The notes under the pieces are model-generated. The model did not search any database, was not told the origin of the DNA, and saw only the letters and a list, made by a program, of their open reading frames with translations. Both the position numbers and the translations under genes were made by a program. Shown here piece after piece: positions 3,664 through 32,130 of a stretch of DNA of 32,130 bases. The stretch's first letter is position 1, and every line of letters starts with the position of its first letter. Source of the stretch: an uncultured Candidatus Binatia bacterium (GTDB lineage: Bacteria; Desulfobacterota; Binatia; UBA9968; JAJDTQ01); NCBI GenBank assembly GCA_964291295.2, contig OZ219756.1, positions 1 to 32,130 of the forward strand. Direction: 5' to 3'.

Positions 3664-4578
3664 ATGAAAGAGACCGTAAATTCCTTCCTCCAGTATCTGG
3701 TCGTCGAGCGCGGCTTCTCCCAGAACACCCTGGACGCCTACAGCAACGACCTCAACCAGTTCCTCAAATTCGCCGCCCAAACGCTCAAAGTGTCCGGCGA
3801 CGACCCCGAAGACTGGCGCCGCGTTGACATCGATCTGCTCAACTCCTACATCAGCGAGCTGCGCGATGTGAAGCGCTACCGCGACGCCACCACCGCCCGC
3901 AAAGTAGCCGCAGTGCGTTCCTTCTTCGGTTACCTCAGCGCCAACGAACTCATCAGCGAAGACCCTACCGAAAACCTCGGTTCCCCCCGCGTCGGGCGTT
4001 CCGTCCCCAAATATCTATCCCAGGAGGAAGTGCAGCGGCTTCTGTCCACCGCCAACGATACCGGCACGCCAGAAGGCCGCCGCGATGCCAGCATCCTGGA
4101 ACTCCTCTACGCCACCGGCGTCCGCGTCAGCGAGCTTGTCGCCCTCAACGTCCAGGACATCGACTTCGAAGAGAGCTTCATCCGCGCTTGGGGCAAGGGA
4201 TCCAAAGAGCGTATCGTCTATTTGTATCCCGAGGCCTTGGCCAACCTCCGCGCCTACATCGGCGACGCGCGTGCCCAGCTGGTCAGCAGTAAAAAAGGGG
4301 AAACCGCCCTCTATGTCAACCAGCGCGGCGAGCGTCTTACCCGCCAATGGGTCTGGAACATCCTCAAATCCGCCGCCAAAAAGTCCGGCGTTGACACCGG
4401 CATCACGCCGCACACCCTCCGCCACAGCTTCGCCACCCACCTGCTCCAGAACGGCGCCTCTCTCCGCCATGTTCAGGAACTCCTCGGCCATTCCAACATT
4501 TCCACCACCCAGATGTACACTCACCTCACCGACGACCACGTCCGCGAAGAATATCAGCAAAGCCACCCCCGCGCTTGA
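3664..4578 (+). CDS. xerD: Site-specific tyrosine recombinase XerD
   Basis: RDASILELLYATGVRVSEL, GKGSKER, TPHTLRHSFATHLL, LLGHSNISTTQMY. Confidence 0.93.
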   Translation: MKETVNSFLQYLVVERGFSQNTLDAYSNDLNQFLKFAAQTLKVSGDDPEDWRRVDIDLLNSYISELRDVKRYRDATTARKVAAVRSFFGYLSANELISEDPTENLGSPRVGRSVPKYLSQEEVQRLLSTANDTGTPEGRRDASILELLYATGVRVSELVALNVQDIDFEESFIRAWGKGSKERIVYLYPEALANLRAYIGDARAQLVSSKKGETALYVNQRGERLTRQWVWNILKSAAKKSGVDTGITPHTLRHSFATHLLQNGASLRHVQELLGHSNISTTQMYTHLTDDHVREEYQQSHPRA

Positions 4579-10704: not shown

Positions 10705-11865
10705 GTGAGCGCCATGACCGACGCAGTACCCGACCCGACTCTGCATTTGCCTAGTCTGGTCATCAAAAATTTCCGGGGCATATCTGATCTCACCATCCCC
10801 CGCCTAGGCCGCGTAACTCTATTCAGCGGCAAAAATGGCGTGGGAAAATCGACCGTGCTTGACGCGGTGCGCATTTACGCTGCCCGTGCACGCACTCGCG
10901 TTTTATCCGAGATATTGCTCGACCGAGATGAACTCGTCAATGTGGTTGACGAAGAAGGTGACGAATCAGCTGCCCCTGACTGGAGCGCTCTATTCTCGGG
11001 TCGTCACACCTTGCCGGAGCAAACTATCTCAATAGGGCCAATCCAGGATTTTGATACGCTCCAAATTCGTATGGTTTCACTAAGCGGTGAGGACTTTCCC
11101 CAGCTGGATCTATATCAGTCCGGTATCTTCGCGGATGAAGAAATGACTGGACTGGAGGTAAAATTCCAAGATGCAAAGCACACGGTTCCTATAAGCTATT
11201 TGCAACGCATAAGCAGGTCTCGAGTGCGACTTTGGACATCTCAAAGGAGACCCCGTCTGTCCCTACCTCAAGAATTTCCTTCTGAAGTGCTATGCAGCGC
11301 CTTAGGTCCTGACGTTCCAAACAATCGCACTATAGAACAATGTCTGAACGATGTGGCCCTAACCCCTCATGAAGAGAGGGCAGTAGAGGCGCTGAATTTG
11401 GTCACATCCGTCGCAGCAGAGCGTGTTGCATTGGTCGGCTCAGATACCAGCAGGGGAATGAGGCCAAGGCGCAGTGTCCTGGTGAAAGTGAGGGGCAGCG
11501 ATGACCCTATACCCCTAAGAAGCCTCGGGGACGGGGCTGTGCGCACGTTTTCAGTCGCTCTTGCCTTGGCCAATAGCAGTAATGGCTTTCTGGTGGTTGA
11601 CGAAGTCGAGAACGGCATCCACCACTCCATCCAAACCAATTTCTGGAAAATGGTTCTTCAATCCGCCCAACGCAACAACGTACAGGTGCTGGCCACCACC
11701 CACAGCGCAGATTGTATCAAGGGTTTCGCTCAAGCCGCTAACGAGCTGGAAGACGTTGAGGGTGTGCTTTACAGCATACGACGCAACGTCAACCGCCTGC
11801 GCGCGGTTGAATACCCCGAACCCGAACTTGCTATCGCCGCCGAGCATGGCATTGAAGTGCGCTAA
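10705..11865 (+). CDS. ABC-type ATPase (AAA_15/AAA_21-like) of a putative defence pair
   Basis: IKNFRGI, Walker A GKNGVGKS, SLGDG signature, VDEVENGIH, ATTHS; more A/T-rich codons than flanking genes. Confidence 0.88.
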   Translation: MSAMTDAVPDPTLHLPSLVIKNFRGISDLTIPRLGRVTLFSGKNGVGKSTVLDAVRIYAARARTRVLSEILLDRDELVNVVDEEGDESAAPDWSALFSGRHTLPEQTISIGPIQDFDTLQIRMVSLSGEDFPQLDLYQSGIFADEEMTGLEVKFQDAKHTVPISYLQRISRSRVRLWTSQRRPRLSLPQEFPSEVLCSALGPDVPNNRTIEQCLNDVALTPHEERAVEALNLVTSVAAERVALVGSDTSRGMRPRRSVLVKVRGSDDPIPLRSLGDGAVRTFSVALALANSSNGFLVVDEVENGIHHSIQTNFWKMVLQSAQRNNVQVLATTHSADCIKGFAQAANELEDVEGVLYSIRRNVNRLRAVEYPEPELAIAAEHGIEVR

Positions 11866-11868
11866 TCC

Positions 11869-12511
11869 ATGTCCACTCCCACCCAGACCTCTGCATCCGG
11901 CCTGCTGGTTGTCGAGGGCCAAAACGACCAGAACGCGATACTGCACCTATGCCGACAGGGGCAACCGGGACTGGCTGAACGCTTCACTATTCACGACGCC
12001 AAGGGTTTTCAAGGTGTGATCAACAGCATCCGCGGGTTCATCAATCAAGATGGCATTACCGCAGTCGGTTTCATAGTGGACGCCGATGATGACCCACAGG
12101 CTCGTTGGCGGCAAGTGCTCAATCGCATTGCCGACGCCGACAATCGAATCGCGCTGCCAGCCTCCCTCGACTCCAACGGCGCCATCATCCCCGAAAATGC
12201 CGACGCCGACATCCCCCGCATCGGTGTCTGGATAATGCCGGATAACCTGTCCGGCGGCGAGCTCGAGGATTTCGTCTCCCGAATGGTGCCTGCCGATGAT
12301 CCGGTATGGCCTCGCGCGCAAGACTATATCGCCCAAATCCCACAGCCGCGCAAGTTCAACGACAAAATCACCAAAGCCAAAGTTCATGCTTGGTTATCCA
12401 CCAGAAAGTTCCCCGGCCTCATCGGCTTGGCAATTCATGAAGGCGACCTGAACACCAATGCCCCCCGTGGCCCAAACTTTCCTCGCCTGGCTATCCCGCC
12501 TTTTCACCTAA
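11869..12511 (+). CDS. DUF3226-like TOPRIM-fold protein with an apparent frameshift in the C6 run 12461-12466
   Basis: VVEGQND and VDAD motifs, GVWIMPDN..GELEDF, KAKVHAWL; deleting one C gives APVAQTFLAWLSRLFT-stop (TAA 12509-12511). Confidence 0.8.
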
Positions 12512-13799
12512 CTCCGCCCTCCGGCCGCCGCGCCGTCAGCATCAGCAGCGACACCGCTGCCAGGTTAACCCCAAACGCCAGAAACACCCACTGGTAGCTT
12601 CTCGTCCAGTCCCAGACGAATCCCGCCGCCGTTGGCCCCAGCGCCTGCCCTCCCACCTGCGCGGCCAGCCCCCAGCTGCGTATCTTGCCTAGATGCAGCC
12701 GCCCGAAGTAGTCCGCCCAAGTCAGCCGCGCCGTGATGTGCAGCCCGCCCACTCCGAACCCCAGGATAAACGCCCCCACTATTCCCACGCCGATGCCGCT
12801 GGCAAAGGCCGTGATGACCGCGCCGCCGGCTACCACCAGGCCCGCCGCCGCCATCACAAACCGCGCTTCTATCCGTCCCCCCAGCGCCGACCACGCAATG
12901 CTGGCCGGCACCTGTGATATGGCAAAAGTAACCGGCGTGAACACGGCCACCGAGCCCGGCGCCCCCTGGTCAATGAAGTGCGGCGCCTGATGCAGCGACA
13001 CCCCCGCCTGCACGATAAACCCGGCGAAGGCGAACAGCATCATCAGCCAGAAAGAGCGCGTCCCCATCGCCTGACGCGGCGTAAAGTTGATTTCCTCCGA
13101 CGCGCTGCGGGGCCGCCGTCCCGCCGCCGGACGTCCGCCCGACGCTGACCCCGACTCGCCGTCCCCGTCCGGTTCCACGCCCAGGTCCTCCGGACGCCGC
13201 GCCATCAGCAGAATTGCCGGCAGCGTTCCCACCGCCATGGTCCACGCTCCCAGCGCGAACCACGCCGTCTCCCAGCTCTGCGCTCCGATGACAGCCTGCG
13301 CCACCAGCGGCATCACTGCCAGCCCCGAACCCTGCGCAGCGTGGTTCAGCGCCAGCGCAAAAGGACGCCGCCGGATGAACCAGTTGCTCACCGCCACCGA
13401 CGTGCCCAGCTCCAGCGGACTGGCAAAAACCGTCCGCCCCGGAACGTATGCCAGGTAAAACAACCAAATCTGGCTCACTGCCCCCAGCGCCACGGCGCAC
13501 AGCCCGGCTATCCCCGACGATATTCCCACCACCAGGCCCGAGCCGTAGCGGTCCAGCACCGGCCCCACCAGCGGCGCCGCGGCTACTGCCAGCACTCCCC
13601 CCAGGCTCACCGCTCCGGAAAACTGCGCCCGCGTCCATCCCAGCTGCTCCGTCATCGGCACCATGAACACCGTCAGCACCGCTACCGACATCAACGGCCG
13701 AGACGAATACGACACAACCCCCGACAGGCCCAGAATGACCCAGCCGTAGTAGAAGGGCATCGTCCGGGCCAAGCGGGCCGGCAGCGCGCGCATCACCAT
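12504..13799 (-). CDS. MFS transporter
   Basis: About 12 hydrophobic segments, FYYGW start, GPVLDRYG motif A, DYFGR. Confidence 0.93.
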   Translation of the reverse strand: MVMRALPARLARTMPFYYGWVILGLSGVVSYSSRPLMSVAVLTVFMVPMTEQLGWTRAQFSGAVSLGGVLAVAAAPLVGPVLDRYGSGLVVGISSGIAGLCAVALGAVSQIWLFYLAYVPGRTVFASPLELGTSVAVSNWFIRRRPFALALNHAAQGSGLAVMPLVAQAVIGAQSWETAWFALGAWTMAVGTLPAILLMARRPEDLGVEPDGDGESGSASGGRPAAGRRPRSASEEINFTPRQAMGTRSFWLMMLFAFAGFIVQAGVSLHQAPHFIDQGAPGSVAVFTPVTFAISQVPASIAWSALGGRIEARFVMAAAGLVVAGGAVITAFASGIGVGIVGAFILGFGVGGLHITARLTWADYFGRLHLGKIRSWGLAAQVGGQALGPTAAGFVWDWTRSYQWVFLAFGVNLAAVSLLMLTARRPEGGVR

Positions 13800-17507: not shown

Positions 17508-18075
17508 CCCCCCAGTATTTCCCGAACCGGGCAGCTGAACCCCGGCAATATCTCACCGCCGTCCAGCGCATCGTCCCTGGTGAGAACCACCGCCGGCCGG
17601 TTCGGCTGCCGCGTCTTTATCGTGCCTGCCTCGGGTCAATTACCAGCGCCATCCGCACGCCGAAGGCCAACCATATATCGGCCTTCTCTTCAACTTCCCG
17701 CTCCGAGTCCCTCGGCGATTTAATCTCCGCCACCAGATCCGGCGCTAACGGACAGTAACCGGCAATCTCCACATCCAGAGGCAGCCTCTCTGCGGAAACA
17801 AACGCCACGTCCGGCTCCCGTACCGTGTCCGGATCCCTTTCCAGCAGTACCCCGCTATCCGACCCGAAAACCCGGCCCAATCCTCCCGCGCGAACGTGCG
17901 TCCCCAATGCAACCATCAGCGCGGCGACTACCTCTCCGTGCAGCATTCCCGCCGGCGCCGTCCTGCGCACCGCCCCCTTGATTAATTCGCCCCCCACGCC
18001 CTCGTTGTGAAGACGCAACAGGTCATCGGCAGTCAACAGCTCCCGTTTAACCCCGGCCATCTCAATCGCAGTCAT
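17504..18075 (-). pseudogene. Uma2/DUF820 endonuclease, frameshifted near 17632-17636 (pseudogene or sequence error)
   Basis: VREPDVAFV, PDLVAEIKSP; the ORF stops at 17617 but another frame continues PEAGTIKTRQPNRPAVVLTRDDALDGGEILPGFSCPVREILGG-stop, a typical Uma2 end. Confidence 0.85.
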
Positions 18076-18131
18076 CGCGGTCACCCGACCTTGGGTCGTC
18101 AATCCTAGCCAAGATTAACGGCATTGTATCA

Positions 18132-26800: not shown

Positions 26801-28297
26801 ATGCCCAGCGCCTGCAACGTCCCTAGCCGAACCATTTTCACCGGCGACAACCTCGACATCCTGCGCGGCATCAACTCCCAGTGCGTCGACCTCATCTACC
26901 TCGACCCTCCCTTCAACTCCAACCGCACCTACGCCGCGCCCTTGGACAGCGAGGCCCGGGGCGCCGAGTTCGATGACGTCTGGACGCTGGACGACATGAA
27001 GGCCGAATGGATTGATGAGATTGAGTTCCGCCGGCCGTCGCTTTTCCACCTTATCAACGGCGCCAAACTGGCGCACGGCGAGAGCATGGCCGGCTACCTC
27101 ACCTTCATGAGCATCCGCCTGCTGGAACTGCACCGCGTATTGAAACCCACCGGCAGCATCTACCTGCACTGCGACGATACCGCAGTCCATTACCTCAAAA
27201 CCATCATGGACGCGCTGTTCGGCTGGCAGCATCATCGGGCGACGATTAGTTGGAAACGGACTTCGGCGCACAACGACTCCCGTACCTTTGGCAGAGTCAC
27301 CGACAATATCCTCTTCTACAGTCGGCGCAGCTCCATAAACGTCGCTGAGGTTCGGGTTCCACTGGACAGCGATTACGTGGAACGGTTCTACCGCTTCGAA
27401 GACGAGCGGGGGAAATACCAGCTCGGAGACCTCACTGCCCCACGCTTGGGCGCGGGCGAAACCGGGCAGCCCTGGCGCGGCTATGACCCAAATCTGCGTG
27501 GACGGCAGTGGAACGCGCCGCTGGCCGGGCGTTACGCCGCCTGGATTGAAGAAAACGTTATTCCAGGATACCGGAACATCACGAGTCCGTTAGCCCGGCT
27601 GGACGCGCTCGACGCCGCCGGCCTAATCGCCTATCCCGCTGATGGCAACATACCCCGCCTTAAGCGCTACCTTGCGGAAAACCCCGGCCAGGCCCCTACT
27701 GACCAGTGGCTGGACATTCGCCCGGTCAGCGCATGGTCAAGTGAACGCACCGGCTGGCGCACGCAAAAGCCGGTAGCCCTGCTGGAACGCATCATCAAAG
27801 CCTCCTCCAACCCTGGCGACTTGGTACTCGACCCGTTCTGCGGCTGCGCCACTGCCTGCATCGCCGCCGAAAAGCTGGGCCGCCAGTGGATTGGCATTGA
27901 CAAGCTCCCGCAGGCCGCCGATGTCCTGGCGCAGCGCGCCCGGCGGGAATTGCAGATACCGATGAACGGCGACGACGGAAAGCCGTGGGAAGACTGGACG
28001 CCAATGGCCCTGCAAGAACCGCCCCGGCGCAGCGACCTGACCCTGCTCATCCCGGCCAATCCCCAATCAGACAAGGAACTGCTGTACGCCAGCCAGAACC
28101 GCCGCTGCGCCGGCTGCGAATACGAACTGCCCCTGCACGTACTCACCATAGACCACATTCACCCCCGCTCACTGGGCGGCTTGGACGCTCTCGGAAACCT
28201 GCAATTGATGTGCCACAGCTGCAACGCCATCAAAGGCAACCGCGATATGGCCTACCTGCGCGAGCAGCTACACCGCCGGGGCATCCTACGGGAGTAG
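26801..28297 (+). CDS. Beta-class N6/N4 DNA methyltransferase fused to a C-terminal HNH domain
   Basis: IYLDPPFNS, TQKPVALLERII, LDPFCGCAT; C-terminal CAGC..DHIHPRSLGG..NLQLMCHSCN; GGAGG SD. Confidence 0.92.
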   Translation: MPSACNVPSRTIFTGDNLDILRGINSQCVDLIYLDPPFNSNRTYAAPLDSEARGAEFDDVWTLDDMKAEWIDEIEFRRPSLFHLINGAKLAHGESMAGYLTFMSIRLLELHRVLKPTGSIYLHCDDTAVHYLKTIMDALFGWQHHRATISWKRTSAHNDSRTFGRVTDNILFYSRRSSINVAEVRVPLDSDYVERFYRFEDERGKYQLGDLTAPRLGAGETGQPWRGYDPNLRGRQWNAPLAGRYAAWIEENVIPGYRNITSPLARLDALDAAGLIAYPADGNIPRLKRYLAENPGQAPTDQWLDIRPVSAWSSERTGWRTQKPVALLERIIKASSNPGDLVLDPFCGCATACIAAEKLGRQWIGIDKLPQAADVLAQRARRELQIPMNGDDGKPWEDWTPMALQEPPRRSDLTLLIPANPQSDKELLYASQNRRCAGCEYELPLHVLTIDHIHPRSLGGLDALGNLQLMCHSCNAIKGNRDMAYLREQLHRRGILRE

Positions 28298-28377
28298 CGC
28301 AGCGCCCGCCGAATAGCGTCCAGATCTGATTTGCCGCCGCCAACAAGTGAACACCCAAACGATACGCGGTCGTTGCA

Positions 28378-28825
28378 TCAGAGTACGGCGGGGTGTATGG
28401 CGTTGACGCGCCTGGCAATCATATCGCCGATTGTGAGTGCCATACTTTCTGCTTCCGCCGGCGGCAATCCTAATAATCTCGCAGTGCGATGGATCCGGCT
28501 CAGGAAAACGATCAGTGCCCAGTTGCGGCGTGTTGATGACGTGTACATCCGGCAACTCGTCTCGGAGATATTGTTTGACGTCGCCAATGTTCAATTCCGC
28601 GAAGATAGCCTGCCTTCCCAGCGTGCGATGAATCACCTTCCTGACTCCGGAAACTTGCTGCGGCTTGGCAAGATCGGCAAAAAACTCCAGCAAGTTGACG
28701 GATAACCCACCCTCATTAAGCCGTCTGCAAAATGCCGCGCCGTCAATCCGACCGTTTTCCCTGATTTGTGAATAACCGACATAACGAACGATGTTGTCGC
28801 TATCTTCCGGGAAATCCGCCGTCAT
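28378..28825 (-). pseudogene. Hypothetical protein with an apparent frameshift near 28469-28477
   Basis: IVRYV..IDGAAF..LSVNLLEFF..DPSHCEI; the adjacent frame continues GLPPAEAESMALTIGDMIARRVNAIHPAVL-stop and removes the overlap with the methyltransferase gene. Confidence 0.65.
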
Positions 28826-29490
28826 GCGTACACCAGCGAGCTCAGGTCAAAAGCGGCAACCTGACGCTTGATCCCGTCAAAGGTGTCGGCGCCGGCAACG
28901 CGCGAGACTTTGACGGCACCGGGGCGGCGCTTGAAAATCACGTACTGGACGTGGCCATCGCCAAGAAATTGCAGCGCCACGTGCCTATCGTCGTCATTGT
29001 CGTCATCCCAGACGGTGCGTAGATTGCCGTTCTCCATAAGGACAACAGACCCCTTGCGCCAGCCGGGGTTGCCGGTGACGAAAGCGCGGAAATCCTCCGC
29101 AGAGGCCTCGCTCCACTCAATGCCTTCTTCCTCGGCGGCTTCGCGCAGTTCAGCGAGGCGTTCGTGGTAGCGCTCATAGGCGCCGGCCGCGTCTGGGGCG
29201 ATGCGCTCCGGCGCTACTCCAATCGAGCCGGGAGGGAACTCTTGAATGATATACCCCGCTTGTCCCAAAGCGGTGGACAGATTCGACAGATGATCAAGCT
29301 GGTCTTCCTGAGCCTGGTCCGGCTCATGGGTGCCCATAGCAAAGACCCTGACGTCATTCATGCGTACGATGCGGCGTCGGAGGTCTGCGGGCGCCATGAT
29401 AATGTGCCCCACATTGAACTCGGCGGCCCAATCTTCAGGGATATCCTCAGCCATGTTGAGATTCCCTTGGGTTTCCGCTTCAGTAGTCAT
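28822..29490 (-). CDS. Acidic hypothetical protein coupled to the downstream gene
   Basis: 222 aa; GGAGG SD; TGtTAGAAT promoter-like motif upstream; ATGA overlap at 28822-28825. Confidence 0.8.
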   Translation of the reverse strand: MTTEAETQGNLNMAEDIPEDWAAEFNVGHIIMAPADLRRRIVRMNDVRVFAMGTHEPDQAQEDQLDHLSNLSTALGQAGYIIQEFPPGSIGVAPERIAPDAAGAYERYHERLAELREAAEEEGIEWSEASAEDFRAFVTGNPGWRKGSVVLMENGNLRTVWDDDNDDDRHVALQFLGDGHVQYVIFKRRPGAVKVSRVAGADTFDGIKRQVAAFDLSSLVYA

Positions 29491-29675
29491 CGCGCGGCCT
29501 CCCGTCTGCGGCGCCAGCGCGCCGTATGATAGGCTCCGATTCTAACAAGTTGCGGTTCGCCCGGCAAACGATGCTTGCTGTGTCAATCGACATCAGCGCC
29601 ATCCTCCCCGTTTGCTATACTGCCGCCATCAAGCAAACCGGGCGGAACGGTCCGGAACCATAAGGACGTGCCTCA

Positions 29676-31091
29676 ATGCCCACCAACCCCAACCCCAGCG
29701 CTCTGCCCGCCACCCTCGGCCAGCTCCGCAGCAGCGGCTATCAATCCGTTTCCGTGCGCGAGGAAATCCGCCGCAATCTCATCGCCAAAATCCGCGCCGA
29801 AGAACCCGTTTTCCCCGGCATCGTCGGCTTCGAGCAAACCGTCATCCCCCAGCTGGAAAACGCCATCCTCGCCGGCCAGGACATCATCCTCCTGGGCGAG
29901 CGCGGCCAGGCCAAAACCCGCCTGATACGCGCCATGGTCAGCTTGCTGGACGAGTACATCCCCGTCATCGCCGGCGGCGAACTCAACGACGACCCCTATA
30001 ATCCCATCAGCCCCGACGCCCGGCGCATCGTTGACGAAATGGCCGACGACGCCCCCATCGCCTGGCTGGCCCGCGACCAGCGCTATTCCGAAAAGCTTGC
30101 CACGCCCGACATCTCCATTGCCGACCTGATTGGCGAAATCGACCCCATCAAAGTTGCCGAGGGCCGCCACCTTTCCGACGAAACCGCCATCCACTACGGC
30201 CTGGTGCCTCGCACCAACCGGGGCATCTTCTGCATCAACGAACTGCCCGACCTGGCCGAGCGCATCCAGGTGGGCCTGTTCAACCTGATGGAAGAGCGCG
30301 ACGTTCAAATAAAAGGCTACCGCGTTCGCCTGCCCCTGGACGTCTTCGTGGTAGCCACCGCCAACCCGGAAGATTACACCAACCGAGGCCGCATCGTAAC
30401 GCCGCTGAAAGACCGCTACGGCGCCCAGATTCATACCCACTATCCCCGCGTTATTGAAGAAGAAATCGAGATAATGGAGCAGGAACGCAACCGCTTCCCC
30501 GACGAGGACAAGGTGTTCGTGCCGTCCTATATGACCGAGATTGTCGCCGAAGTAACGGCCCGGGCGCGCCTGAGCAACGAAATCAACCAGCGTTCCGGCG
30601 TCAGCGTGCGCGTGTCCATCGCCAACTACGAAACCCTCATCAGCAACGCCCTGCGCCGCAGCATCCGCCAGGGCGAAACCGTTGCCTGCCCCCGCGTCAG
30701 CGACCTGCCCTATCTCATCGCCTCCCTCGGCGGCAAGATTGAGCTGGAAACCTTCGGCGAGGGCCGCGAAGACCGCCTGGTTGATGACCTCACCAAACGC
30801 GCCACCCTCGCCATCTTCACCCGCTACTGCAACGTGGACGACCTGGACGACATCGTAACCTCCTTTGACCTGGGCAACGCAGTGGAAACCGGCAGCGATG
30901 TGCCCGCCGCCGCTTACTCCTCCGCCCTGGCCAACATCGAGGGATTGTCGTCCGTCGTGTCTCAGCTCACCGGAGACGACGGACGGCCCGAAGTGCAAGC
31001 GTCGGCAGTCGAGTTCGTGCTGGAAGGGCTCCACCTGAACCGCCGCCTCAACTGCGCCCGCACCCCGGCCGGCTACCGCTACGCCCGCTAG
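29676..31091 (+). CDS. AAA+ ATPase, Mg-chelatase/MoxR-like
   Basis: LLGERGQAKTR, DLIGEIDP, INELPDL, ATANPEDYTNRGRI; TGcTATACT upstream. Confidence 0.9.
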   Translation: MPTNPNPSALPATLGQLRSSGYQSVSVREEIRRNLIAKIRAEEPVFPGIVGFEQTVIPQLENAILAGQDIILLGERGQAKTRLIRAMVSLLDEYIPVIAGGELNDDPYNPISPDARRIVDEMADDAPIAWLARDQRYSEKLATPDISIADLIGEIDPIKVAEGRHLSDETAIHYGLVPRTNRGIFCINELPDLAERIQVGLFNLMEERDVQIKGYRVRLPLDVFVVATANPEDYTNRGRIVTPLKDRYGAQIHTHYPRVIEEEIEIMEQERNRFPDEDKVFVPSYMTEIVAEVTARARLSNEINQRSGVSVRVSIANYETLISNALRRSIRQGETVACPRVSDLPYLIASLGGKIELETFGEGREDRLVDDLTKRATLAIFTRYCNVDDLDDIVTSFDLGNAVETGSDVPAAAYSSALANIEGLSSVVSQLTGDDGRPEVQASAVEFVLEGLHLNRRLNCARTPAGYRYAR

Positions 31092-31135
31092 TCGCCGCCG
31101 TACAGACCACAGGCAAAACGACACGGAGGTTTGCC

Positions 31136-31711
31136 ATGGCTACGCAACAAACCGTCGCCGCCCCGCCGGTTACGCTGAAAAAGTACGCCGCCCTGCCCAA
31201 ACACCCCCGCTACGAGCTGGTCAAAGGATCCCTGGTCGAACAGATGGCAGCTTCGGAAAAACACGAACATACCGGATCGCTGGTCAACTGGCTTATGTCA
31301 GCGCACGTCTTTCCTAATAACTTGGGGCGGGTGTACGGCAGCAACCGGGGCTATGTTACCGGCCCGGCTTCTCCCGCCACCTCCCGGATGCCCGATGTCT
31401 CCTTCGTGTCCAATGCCCGCTTAGGCCGCCCCGAACTCTTCGGTATGCTTTATAATGGCGCCCCCGACCTCGCCGTAGAAATACTCTCCGACAGCAATAC
31501 CCCCGCCGAAATCGCTCAGAAAGTCAACGAATACCTCATCACTGGCGGCAAAGCCGTCTGGGTCATTGACATCGACGCCCGCACCCTCACCCTGCACACC
31601 CCTGACGCGCCGCCGCATACCCTGACCGAGGATGACACCCTGGACAGCGCCGACTACCTGCCCTGGTTCGCCTGCCGCATAGCCGAGCTGCTGCCCACAC
31701 GGGCGGATTAA
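31136..31711 (+). CDS. Uma2/DUF820 (PD-(D/E)xK) endonuclease, copy 1
   Basis: RYELVKG, RMPDVSFV, APDLAVEILS, VWVID, LPWFAC; GGAGG SD. Confidence 0.93.
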   Translation: MATQQTVAAPPVTLKKYAALPKHPRYELVKGSLVEQMAASEKHEHTGSLVNWLMSAHVFPNNLGRVYGSNRGYVTGPASPATSRMPDVSFVSNARLGRPELFGMLYNGAPDLAVEILSDSNTPAEIAQKVNEYLITGGKAVWVIDIDARTLTLHTPDAPPHTLTEDDTLDSADYLPWFACRIAELLPTRAD

Positions 31712-31817
31712 ATCGCCTGAACCGCCGCCTCAACTGCGCCCGGACCCCGGCCGGCTACCGCTACGCCCGCTAGCCGCCGCCGTACAGACCACAGGCAAAA
31801 CGACACGGAGGTTTGCC

Positions 31818-32130
31818 ATGGCTACGCAACAAACCGTCGCCGCCCCGCCGGTTACGCTGGAAAAGTACGCCGCCCTGCCCAAACACCCCCGCTACGAGCT
31901 GGTCAAAGGAGCCCTGGTCGAACAGATGGCAGCTTCAGAAGAACACGAGAGAACCGTAATCCGAACCGGCCGCCACCTGGACATTCACGTTGACAACCAT
32001 AACTTGGGGCGGGTGTACGGCAGCAATCGAGGCTATGTTACCGGCCCGGCTTCTCCCGCCACCTCCCGGATGCCCGATGTCTCCTTCGTGTCCAATGCCC
32101 GCTTAGGCCGCCCCGAACTCTTCGGTGCCG
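31818..32130 (+). CDS. Uma2/DUF820 endonuclease, copy 2 (runs off the window end)
   Basis: MATQQTVAAPPVTLEKYAALPKHPRYELVKGALVEQMAASEEHERTVIRTGRHLDIHVDNHNLGRVYGSNRGYVTGPASPATSRMPDVSFV; frame is open to the window end. Confidence 0.92.
   Translation, partial: MATQQTVAAPPVTLEKYAALPKHPRYELVKGALVEQMAASEEHERTVIRTGRHLDIHVDNHNLGRVYGSNRGYVTGPASPATSRMPDVSFVSNARLGRPELFGA

Follow-up and report, generated by a model that had tools for sequence, protein, structure and literature searches.

A tandem pair of Uma2-family nuclease genes that share one body and differ in a short helix block

The tandem pair and its variable block

The window analyzed here is the whole of contig C3 (OZ219756.1, 32,130 nucleotides, nt) of a three-contig assembly (GCA_964291295.2) listed as an uncultured Candidatus Binatia bacterium. 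At its end, directly after a gene for an AAA+ ATPase, lie two tandem genes of the Uma2 family, i.e., predicted small nucleases with the PD-(D/E)XK fold, and the contig end falls inside the second one. The two copies have nearly the same sequence except in one block of 62 nt that encodes most of the helix alpha-1 of the predicted proteins. The complete pair is found in a closed chromosome (locus L004, chromosome G001) that will be used as a reference below. The features are the following, all on the forward strand; aa stands for amino acids and ORF for open reading frame.

29676..31091, +: upstream AAA+ ATPase gene, 471 aa, MoxR / Mg-chelatase-like (ORF; Pfam AAA_5, AAA_3, Sigma54_activat)
31034..31715, +: repeat unit 1, 682 nt, made of the 58-nt AAA end, a 44-nt spacer, Uma2 copy 1 and 4 nt
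31136..31711, +: Uma2 copy 1, 191 aa, PD-(D/E)XK nuclease-fold, with an A-type block (ORF; PF05685, 84.7 bits)
31255..31316 (core 31267-31316), +: variable block of copy 1, residues 40-61, most of helix alpha-1
31716..32130, +: repeat unit 2, 415 of 682 nt present, the rest cut by the contig end; opens with a dead copy of the AAA tail (58 nt) and the spacer
31818..32130, +: Uma2 copy 2, first 104 codons, with a C-type block (PF05685, 39.2 bits; the full gene in L004 has 191 aa)
31937..31998 (core 31949-31998), +: variable block of copy 2
32127..32130, +: last 4 nt of the contig, an assembly-end error (the sole mismatches with copy 2 of L004)

Both ORFs exceed the cut-off of 27 bits for Pfam Uma2 (PF05685; COG4636; DUF820). 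The repeat was detected as two families of direct repeats with a spacing of 682 nt, 31034-31266 vs. 31716-31948 (97% identity) and 31317-31444 vs. 31999-32126 (98%). The final 58 nt of the AAA+ gene (31034-31091) fall within the repeated unit, and the 44-nt spacer that follows contains a GGAGG ahead of the ATG; between the two copies in the window there is nothing but the dead AAA tail and the spacer. An ungapped comparison of the units gave 4 mismatches in 31034-31254, 35 in 31255-31316 and 2 in 31317-31444, without any indel, i.e., 6/349 outside the block and 35/62 inside it. These are exactly the counts of a first-pass annotation made from the letters alone, and both block peptides that it quoted are present in the ORF translations. 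Its description of the copies as identical except for the block was too strong, since over the full 682-nt units, taking the complete copies from L004, we found 54 differences (54/682), 35 of them in the block and 19 elsewhere (of 620 nt). Some of the latter are clustered, e.g., four synonymous-type changes packed in 13 nt at unit positions 417-429.

The same full units from L004 were submitted to a maximum chi-square test with 200 permutations. The sharpest segment was 31267-31316 / 31949-31998, with 33 differences in 50 nt and a chi-square of 249.7, a value reached by 0/200 permutations (permutation maximum 64.4). The edges of the block are therefore sharper than expected by chance. The remainder of the gene, that we will call the scaffold, had between the copies a nonsynonymous divergence (dN) of 0.017 and a synonymous divergence (dS) of 0.067 (14/483 nt), and the 25 block codons a dN of 0.649 and a dS of 1.11 (35/75 nt). 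Divergence per site is thus concentrated in the block, also at synonymous positions. Among codons that keep their residue, synonymous change was seen in 3/10 within the block vs. 7/155 in the scaffold (Fisher p 0.016), and replaced codons amounted to 15/25 vs. 6/161 (p 3e-11), many of the replaced codons having two or three positions changed. Counted by the base found in copy 1, the block substitutions affected T 12 times, G 8, A 8 and C 7, with 17 transitions and 18 transversions. The block of copy 2 has 91% nucleotide identity over 75 columns with that of the second Uma2 gene at L017, a locus of another species, and their scaffolds are only about 83% identical. To judge from these substitution patterns, the block is an old divergence inside a young gene and not the product of fresh point mutation, and the different histories of block and scaffold point to recombination over local mutation.

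At the protein level, the AlphaFold2 (AF2) models of the two copies have the same fold (mean predicted local distance difference test, pLDDT, 78.1 for copy 1 and 79.8 for copy 2). Mapped on them, the block makes up most of helix alpha-1 in both, residues 41-58 in copy 1 and 41-60 in copy 2, with a pLDDT of 91-97. Structure comparison with Foldseek retrieved the entries 3ot2 (E 2.3e-13), 6okh, 1wdj and 9y1l, with template modeling (TM) scores of up to 0.85 on the target, and a profile search gave the same four, all of them solved and uncharacterized DUF820/Uma2 proteins with a restriction-endonuclease-like fold. In an alignment of 78 homologues, H43, E44, P86, D87, D111 and E115 were invariant and K129 was conserved in at least 90%; all seven are kept in both copies (copy 2 taken as the full L004 protein). 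For this family an H - PD - EXX - K active site, with the lysine moved to the next helix, has been proposed in the accessible text of Feder and Bujnicki (2005, PMC551604). The conserved residues fit this site, although the residue-to-residue matching is our own assignment. The block was correctly placed by the first-pass annotation after the conserved histidine and ahead of the PD motif: its variable part comes right after H43-E44, with P86-D87 downstream. No other stretch of 17 residues in the gene varies as much as residues 45-61 (1.90 bits vs. 0.71 for the rest). There T46, L49, V50, a hydrophobic residue at 54, H57 and V58 are conserved, and radical changes affect positions 45, 48, 51-53, 55, 56 and 59 (W/R/I/H at 52 and S/D/G/L at 55, for example), a spacing that fits one buried and one presumably exposed helix face.

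The contig is a foreign one in the bin, coming from a Dehalococcoidia bacterium and not from the main chromosome of the bin. It carries the housekeeping genes alaS, uvrA, recO, mutS2, nadE and ruvX, and we assign it to a second organism because contig C1 (3.65 Mb) contains distant versions of its own for 8/9 of the compared C3 genes (28-54% protein identity). The ruvX of C3 gave no match on C1 at E 1e-5. The contamination figure of the bin is 4.39%. A search with the AAA protein located L004, which is the same locus in a closed 3.27-Mb chromosome of a Dehalococcoidia metagenome-assembled genome (MAG), 99.08% identical over 12.4 kb. The 115 differences between the window and L004 are clustered far from the Uma2 genes, and just three are in the last 2.5 kb. 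L004 contains exactly two complete units (11359-12040 and 12041-12722) followed by unique sequence, so the longer array that had been suspected is not present in this genome. Unit 1 of the window is identical to 11359-12040 (682/682), and the partial unit 2 matches at 411/415 positions, the four exceptions being the last letters of the contig. These had differed from the first unit at all four positions (31445-31448 vs. 32127-32130, 4/4) and had been taken as a possible second variable patch. Because copy 2 of L004 reads there like copy 1, they are a contig-end assembly error, and the complete copy has no such patch.

The tandem arrangement can also be followed in raw data. Logan unitigs of two runs of one study, X1 and X2, which may be the source samples and hence are not independent evidence, carry each block with 0-1 mismatches. 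A 105-nt unitig of X1 bridges the joint between units 1 and 2, with 47 and 58 letters on either side and no mismatch; an X2 record across the joint was not counted as bridging, having just 27 letters on one side. In a third run we found a 90-95% relative carrying both kinds of block.

Block kinds and scaffolds in related loci

Using the AAA+ gene as anchor, 80 related loci were fetched. In 42/80 there were one to five Uma2 genes of the same subfamily directly after the AAA+ gene (82 genes altogether), one in 16 loci, two in 16, three in 7, four in 2 and five in 1; in the other 38/80 no Uma2 gene of the subfamily was found by tblastn at E 1e-20. L005 and L006, which by AAA identity (93-94%) are the nearest relatives, have no Uma2 set; around their position 11420 there is a clean gap of 1,281 nt (L004 11435-12715) between conserved flanks. 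The spot after the AAA+ gene thus behaves as a hot-spot of gain and loss. The first-pass annotation had spoken of a diversifying array; the host has just two copies, and in the relatives the genes of the tandem sets, up to five, mostly have different blocks.

In the related arrays successive genes are spaced by about 18-59 nt. The largest one (L042, 11487-14383) has five Uma2 genes in tandem, in which genes 2-3 and 4-5 are a duplicated two-gene unit with identical blocks and 95-97% identical scaffolds, and it shows array growth by unequal crossing-over. Among the 59 pairs of genes from the same genome, 13 have scaffolds with at least 90% identity, and in 10 of these, from 7 genomes, the blocks are at most 65% identical, with edges that are sharp at the DNA level. 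At the clustering cut used, the blocks of the 82 genes fall into 12 kinds, 9 of them with at least three members, that merge gradually into each other at looser cuts. Within kinds, and across genomes, the block dN/dS was roughly 0.08-0.25 in 7/8 kinds, similar to that of the scaffold, which indicates that the block types are functional and held by purifying selection.

The tree obtained from 483 scaffold columns (IQ-TREE, quick search) pairs the copies of the same genome in several cases with high support in the Shimodaira-Hasegawa-like approximate likelihood ratio test (SH-aLRT), namely L004 (100), L010 (95), L019 (98), L028 (98), L029 (98) and L041 (100). On this tree block kind changes 37 times (minimum 11; shuffles 53.5 +/- 1.9) and genome label 43 times (minimum 25; shuffles 56.5 +/- 1.5). 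When the seven C-type genes, a group chosen after the tree was seen, are constrained to one clade, 334 log-likelihood (lnL) units are lost in the approximately unbiased (AU) test (p-AU 5e-86). The incongruence between scaffold and block is strong, yet it is not universal, because in some first-position genes the scaffold clade tracks the block kind (the ITVV.../LTVIRTG... group, 12 rows, SH-aLRT 99).

Other genes of the family are found in the same organism. In the host chromosome 46 Uma2 matches were counted, of which 19 lie in 8 tandem clusters. In the clusters near 2505k, 610k and 515k the N and C termini are also near-identical, and the divergence falls mostly in alpha-1 or in the central part. 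In the window there is a third Uma2 gene on the reverse strand (17617-18102), 33-41% identical to the pair. It may be truncated, since its Pfam match extends over positions 2-138 of the 172 in the profile and continues across a TAA.

Duplication, proposed exchange and rival explanations

We think it likely that the pair arose by a recent tandem duplication accompanied by a recombinational exchange of an old cassette coding for helix alpha-1. The sequence shows the first step, a recent duplication of 682 nt that took along, besides the Uma2 gene, the 58-nt AAA end and the 44-nt spacer, since only an event of this extent gives unit 2 its AAA tail and spacer, 100/102 nt of which are identical to those of unit 1. 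It is about as young as the divergence of the scaffolds. It left both copies with the same ribosome-binding context, a near-identical body and H43/E44, D87, E115 and K129 intact. About 50-75 nt of one copy would then have been replaced by an old alternative version through homologous recombination anchored in the conserved codons at either side of the segment. We make no claim of recombination anchors conserved at the DNA level, because third codon positions had no striking excess of conservation in the block flanks (0.41 in the block vs. 0.42-0.66 elsewhere). This segment codes for the variable side of helix alpha-1, next to the catalytic His-Glu. Across the relatives it is present in a limited set of types on scaffolds grouped by genome, within a variable islet of 0-5 Uma2 genes after the AAA+ gene. 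Of the recombination scheme first put forward for this pair, the part that holds is that block and scaffold differ in history, and that the version found in copy 2 recurs in other genomes on other scaffolds. The accompanying idea of a long-running homogenization of the scaffolds does not fare well in this genome, in which a recent 682-nt duplication fits better because unit 2 carries the AAA end and the spacer.

In functional terms, the cell would make two predicted nucleases that share a catalytic body and differ in their alpha-1 surface. The exposed face of the helix may set the specificity for a partner, as the other chain of a homo-oligomer, or for a nucleic-acid target, and a block swap would create a new specificity without rebuilding the enzyme. 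We infer this because each version is conserved, because the block adjoins the catalytic pair, and because DUF820 proteins self-interact: in the accessible text of a two-hybrid screen of Synechocystis, nine self-interacting proteins with DUF820 are described, and also cross-interactions between paralogues (PMC2779905). That the islet works as a combinatorial repertoire of specificities, in which old alpha-1 cassettes are moved within and between species onto resident scaffolds and the pairing of chains or the choice of the nucleic acid to be cut depends on the helix, is a more speculative proposal, to which we give little credence for the moment. No evidence of switching within a population was found.

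Several observations weigh against duplication with exchange, or against a role for the block in specificity. The block dN/dS between the copies is 0.58 and not above 1, so positive selection for difference is left without support, and one block kind, EAAALN..., departs from the rest with a median dN higher than dS across genomes (0.200 vs. 0.060). Repeated block types are not avoided within arrays beyond chance: a type is shared in 5/59 within-genome pairs vs. 8.1 +/- 2.6 in shuffles (P = 0.15). A donor search with the 74-nt block of copy 2 against the host chromosome gave the self-match and chance matches of at most 23 nt (E at least 0.7). As the host chromosome holds no donor, the block must have come from outside or from a sequence since lost. 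Likewise, when both block peptides were compared with 30 paralogue loci by tblastn, we found weak family-level likeness only, e.g., SHEHGRVAARLGRRIG... at 33%. L017 has the same order, A then C, its scaffolds pair by genome (SH-aLRT 86), and it has no co-duplicated upstream tail. Because of this last case, homogenizing conversion and not fresh duplication may yield the same picture in other genomes. Finally, no biochemical assay of any Uma2 member is reported in the accessible parts of PMC551604, PMC2701414, PMC1274311 and PMC3424549.

The block could also be a neutral island, in which case conversion or duplication would keep the scaffolds alike, and the block, too diverged to convert, would exist in equivalent versions with no role in specificity. 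The lack of significant avoidance of repeated types within arrays and the between-copy ratio just mentioned speak for it, but they have to be set against the conservation of each type across genomes at a scaffold-like dN/dS, the restriction of radical changes to one helix face while the other is kept, the recurrence of at least nine types among 82 genes and the start of the block right after the invariant His-Glu, and we regard it as rather unlikely. Alternatively, the pair might be an old A-C pair like that of L017, whose flanks have been kept alike by continuing gene conversion (concerted evolution) in place of a recent duplication and swap. L017 has the two types in the same order at the same locus with paired scaffolds, scaffolds group by genome in several species, and the differences between our copies are patchy, as in the cluster at unit positions 417-429. 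What conversion between Uma2 paralogues cannot create is the AAA tail and spacer of unit 2, and the second gene of L017 has no such upstream homology. This makes an old pair, for the genome studied here, decidedly unlikely.

Two further possibilities have much less in their favor. The tandem might be an assembly artefact, two strain alleles of a single-copy gene falsely stitched together at a contig end, a chimera that the first-pass annotation had itself considered. The contig does stop within copy 2 with four wrong letters, and it sits in the bin of another organism. A strain chimera is nevertheless very unlikely, because both complete units with unique downstream sequence are present in the closed chromosome, an X1 unitig made of raw-read k-mers crosses the joint without a mismatch, and 26 other genomes have tandem sets at the same spot. 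As for the making of the block in place, by local hypermutation similar to that of diversity-generating retroelements or by strong positive selection on point mutations after the duplication, it is compatible with a divergence limited to a single short segment, in frame and equally long in the two copies. The block, however, has a saturated synonymous divergence, it matches at 91% that of another species (L017 gene 2), and the substitutions are not A-specific. Neither a template, i.e., a second copy of the block, in the host chromosome nor a reverse-transcriptase family among the 27 window ORFs scanned was detected, which upholds the early exclusion of retroelement-type mutagenesis. We hold an origin in place to be extremely improbable, and duplication followed by exchange remains the account that we prefer.

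Neighboring genes and known systems

At the contig start there is a RelB antitoxin / YafQ toxin pair (110-647, +). Right after uvrA, an ATPase (10705-11865, +) matches the PADLOC models PDC-M38A (E 4.4e-78) and AbiLi (E 3.9e-43), and beside it lies an ORF of 146 aa (11947-12387, -) with no family match. A gene at 26801-28297 (+) codes for an N6/N4 DNA methyltransferase that carries an HNH nuclease domain at its C terminus, and it is followed on the opposite strand by two ORFs (28286-28825 and 28822-29490) without any match in Pfam, PADLOC or NCBIfam. The AAA+ ATPase upstream of the pair has weak matches of BchI/ChlI type in NCBIfam, far under the cut-off.

The proteins of the Uma2 family (COG4636, DUF820, TT1808) have been described as putative PD-(D/E)XK nucleases that proliferate and form cassettes of paralogues (PMC551604, PMC2701414, PMC1274311), and proposals for their nature include selfish nucleases and solo toxins (these three and PMC3424549), always according to the accessible text of these sources. 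Our pair resembles the family in Pfam match, fold, active-site pattern, tandem duplication and many paralogues per genome. It differs in the bounded helix block, present in discrete types on genome-grouped scaffolds, which the accessible parts of PMC551604, PMC2701414 and PMC1274311 do not describe. The expression "gene conversion" has 0 occurrences in PMC551604. No link of Uma2 to gene conversion or to a variable helix was found in the literature covered, a coverage that leaves out most subscription journals and supplements, and within it Uma2 and gene conversion co-occur only in unrelated contexts. In PADLOC, the pair can be related to a candidate defence system, PDC-S03, by matches to three models (E 1.6e-13, 5.9e-12 and 6.2e-09) for which there is no curated cut-off; a role in defence is thus a candidate label.

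Diversity-generating retroelements share with this case a short variable segment in an otherwise constant gene, but the pair does not qualify as a target of one, as neither an A-specific pattern nor a template repeat nor, among the 27 window ORFs scanned, a reverse transcriptase was found. A polymorphic toxin with an immunity cassette was discarded as well, since no small immunity gene is found between the genes, in keeping with the short gaps of the related arrays. Segmental gene conversion, or concerted evolution, is known in tandem paralogues, e.g., those for outer-membrane proteins of Helicobacter. There too the paralogues of a genome resemble each other except in one sharply bounded, older segment. 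Here the product is a small predicted cytoplasmic nuclease and not a surface protein, the segment is a single helix by the active site, and in this genome fresh duplication, not conversion, explains the alike parts.

Few small nuclease-fold families have expanded as much as Uma2/DUF820 in Cyanobacteria, Thermus and Chloroflexota. In the mosaic, what varies against a constant background is one short, presumably exposed helix face beside the catalytic His-Glu, and this gives a testable handle on a large family with no assigned role in the literature covered, for which selfish element, solo toxin and defence candidate have been the ideas. If the helix does act as proposed, a swap of about 17 residues could be enough for bacteria to retune a nuclease of the defence or selfish type, and the variable helix would be the first functional handle on a family whose role has been unassigned since 2005.

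In type I restriction systems, the target-recognition domains of hsdS are shuffled by recombination. The likeness to our case lies in a constant enzyme body with alternative short segments that are exchanged through conserved flanks, with the specificity role being here a presumed one. A shufflon of the hsdS type was considered and rejected: there are no inverted repeats around the block (just two unrelated inverted pairs in 28000-32130), the sole recombinase family in the window is that of an Xer-type integrase-family gene at 3664-4578, 27 kb away, and the chromosome has no silent cassettes. A recombination mosaic in tandem paralogues is a well-known process, and we do not regard this one as a new mechanism of diversification. 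If the reading of the helix is right, it would be the protein-level counterpart of hsdS domain shuffling.

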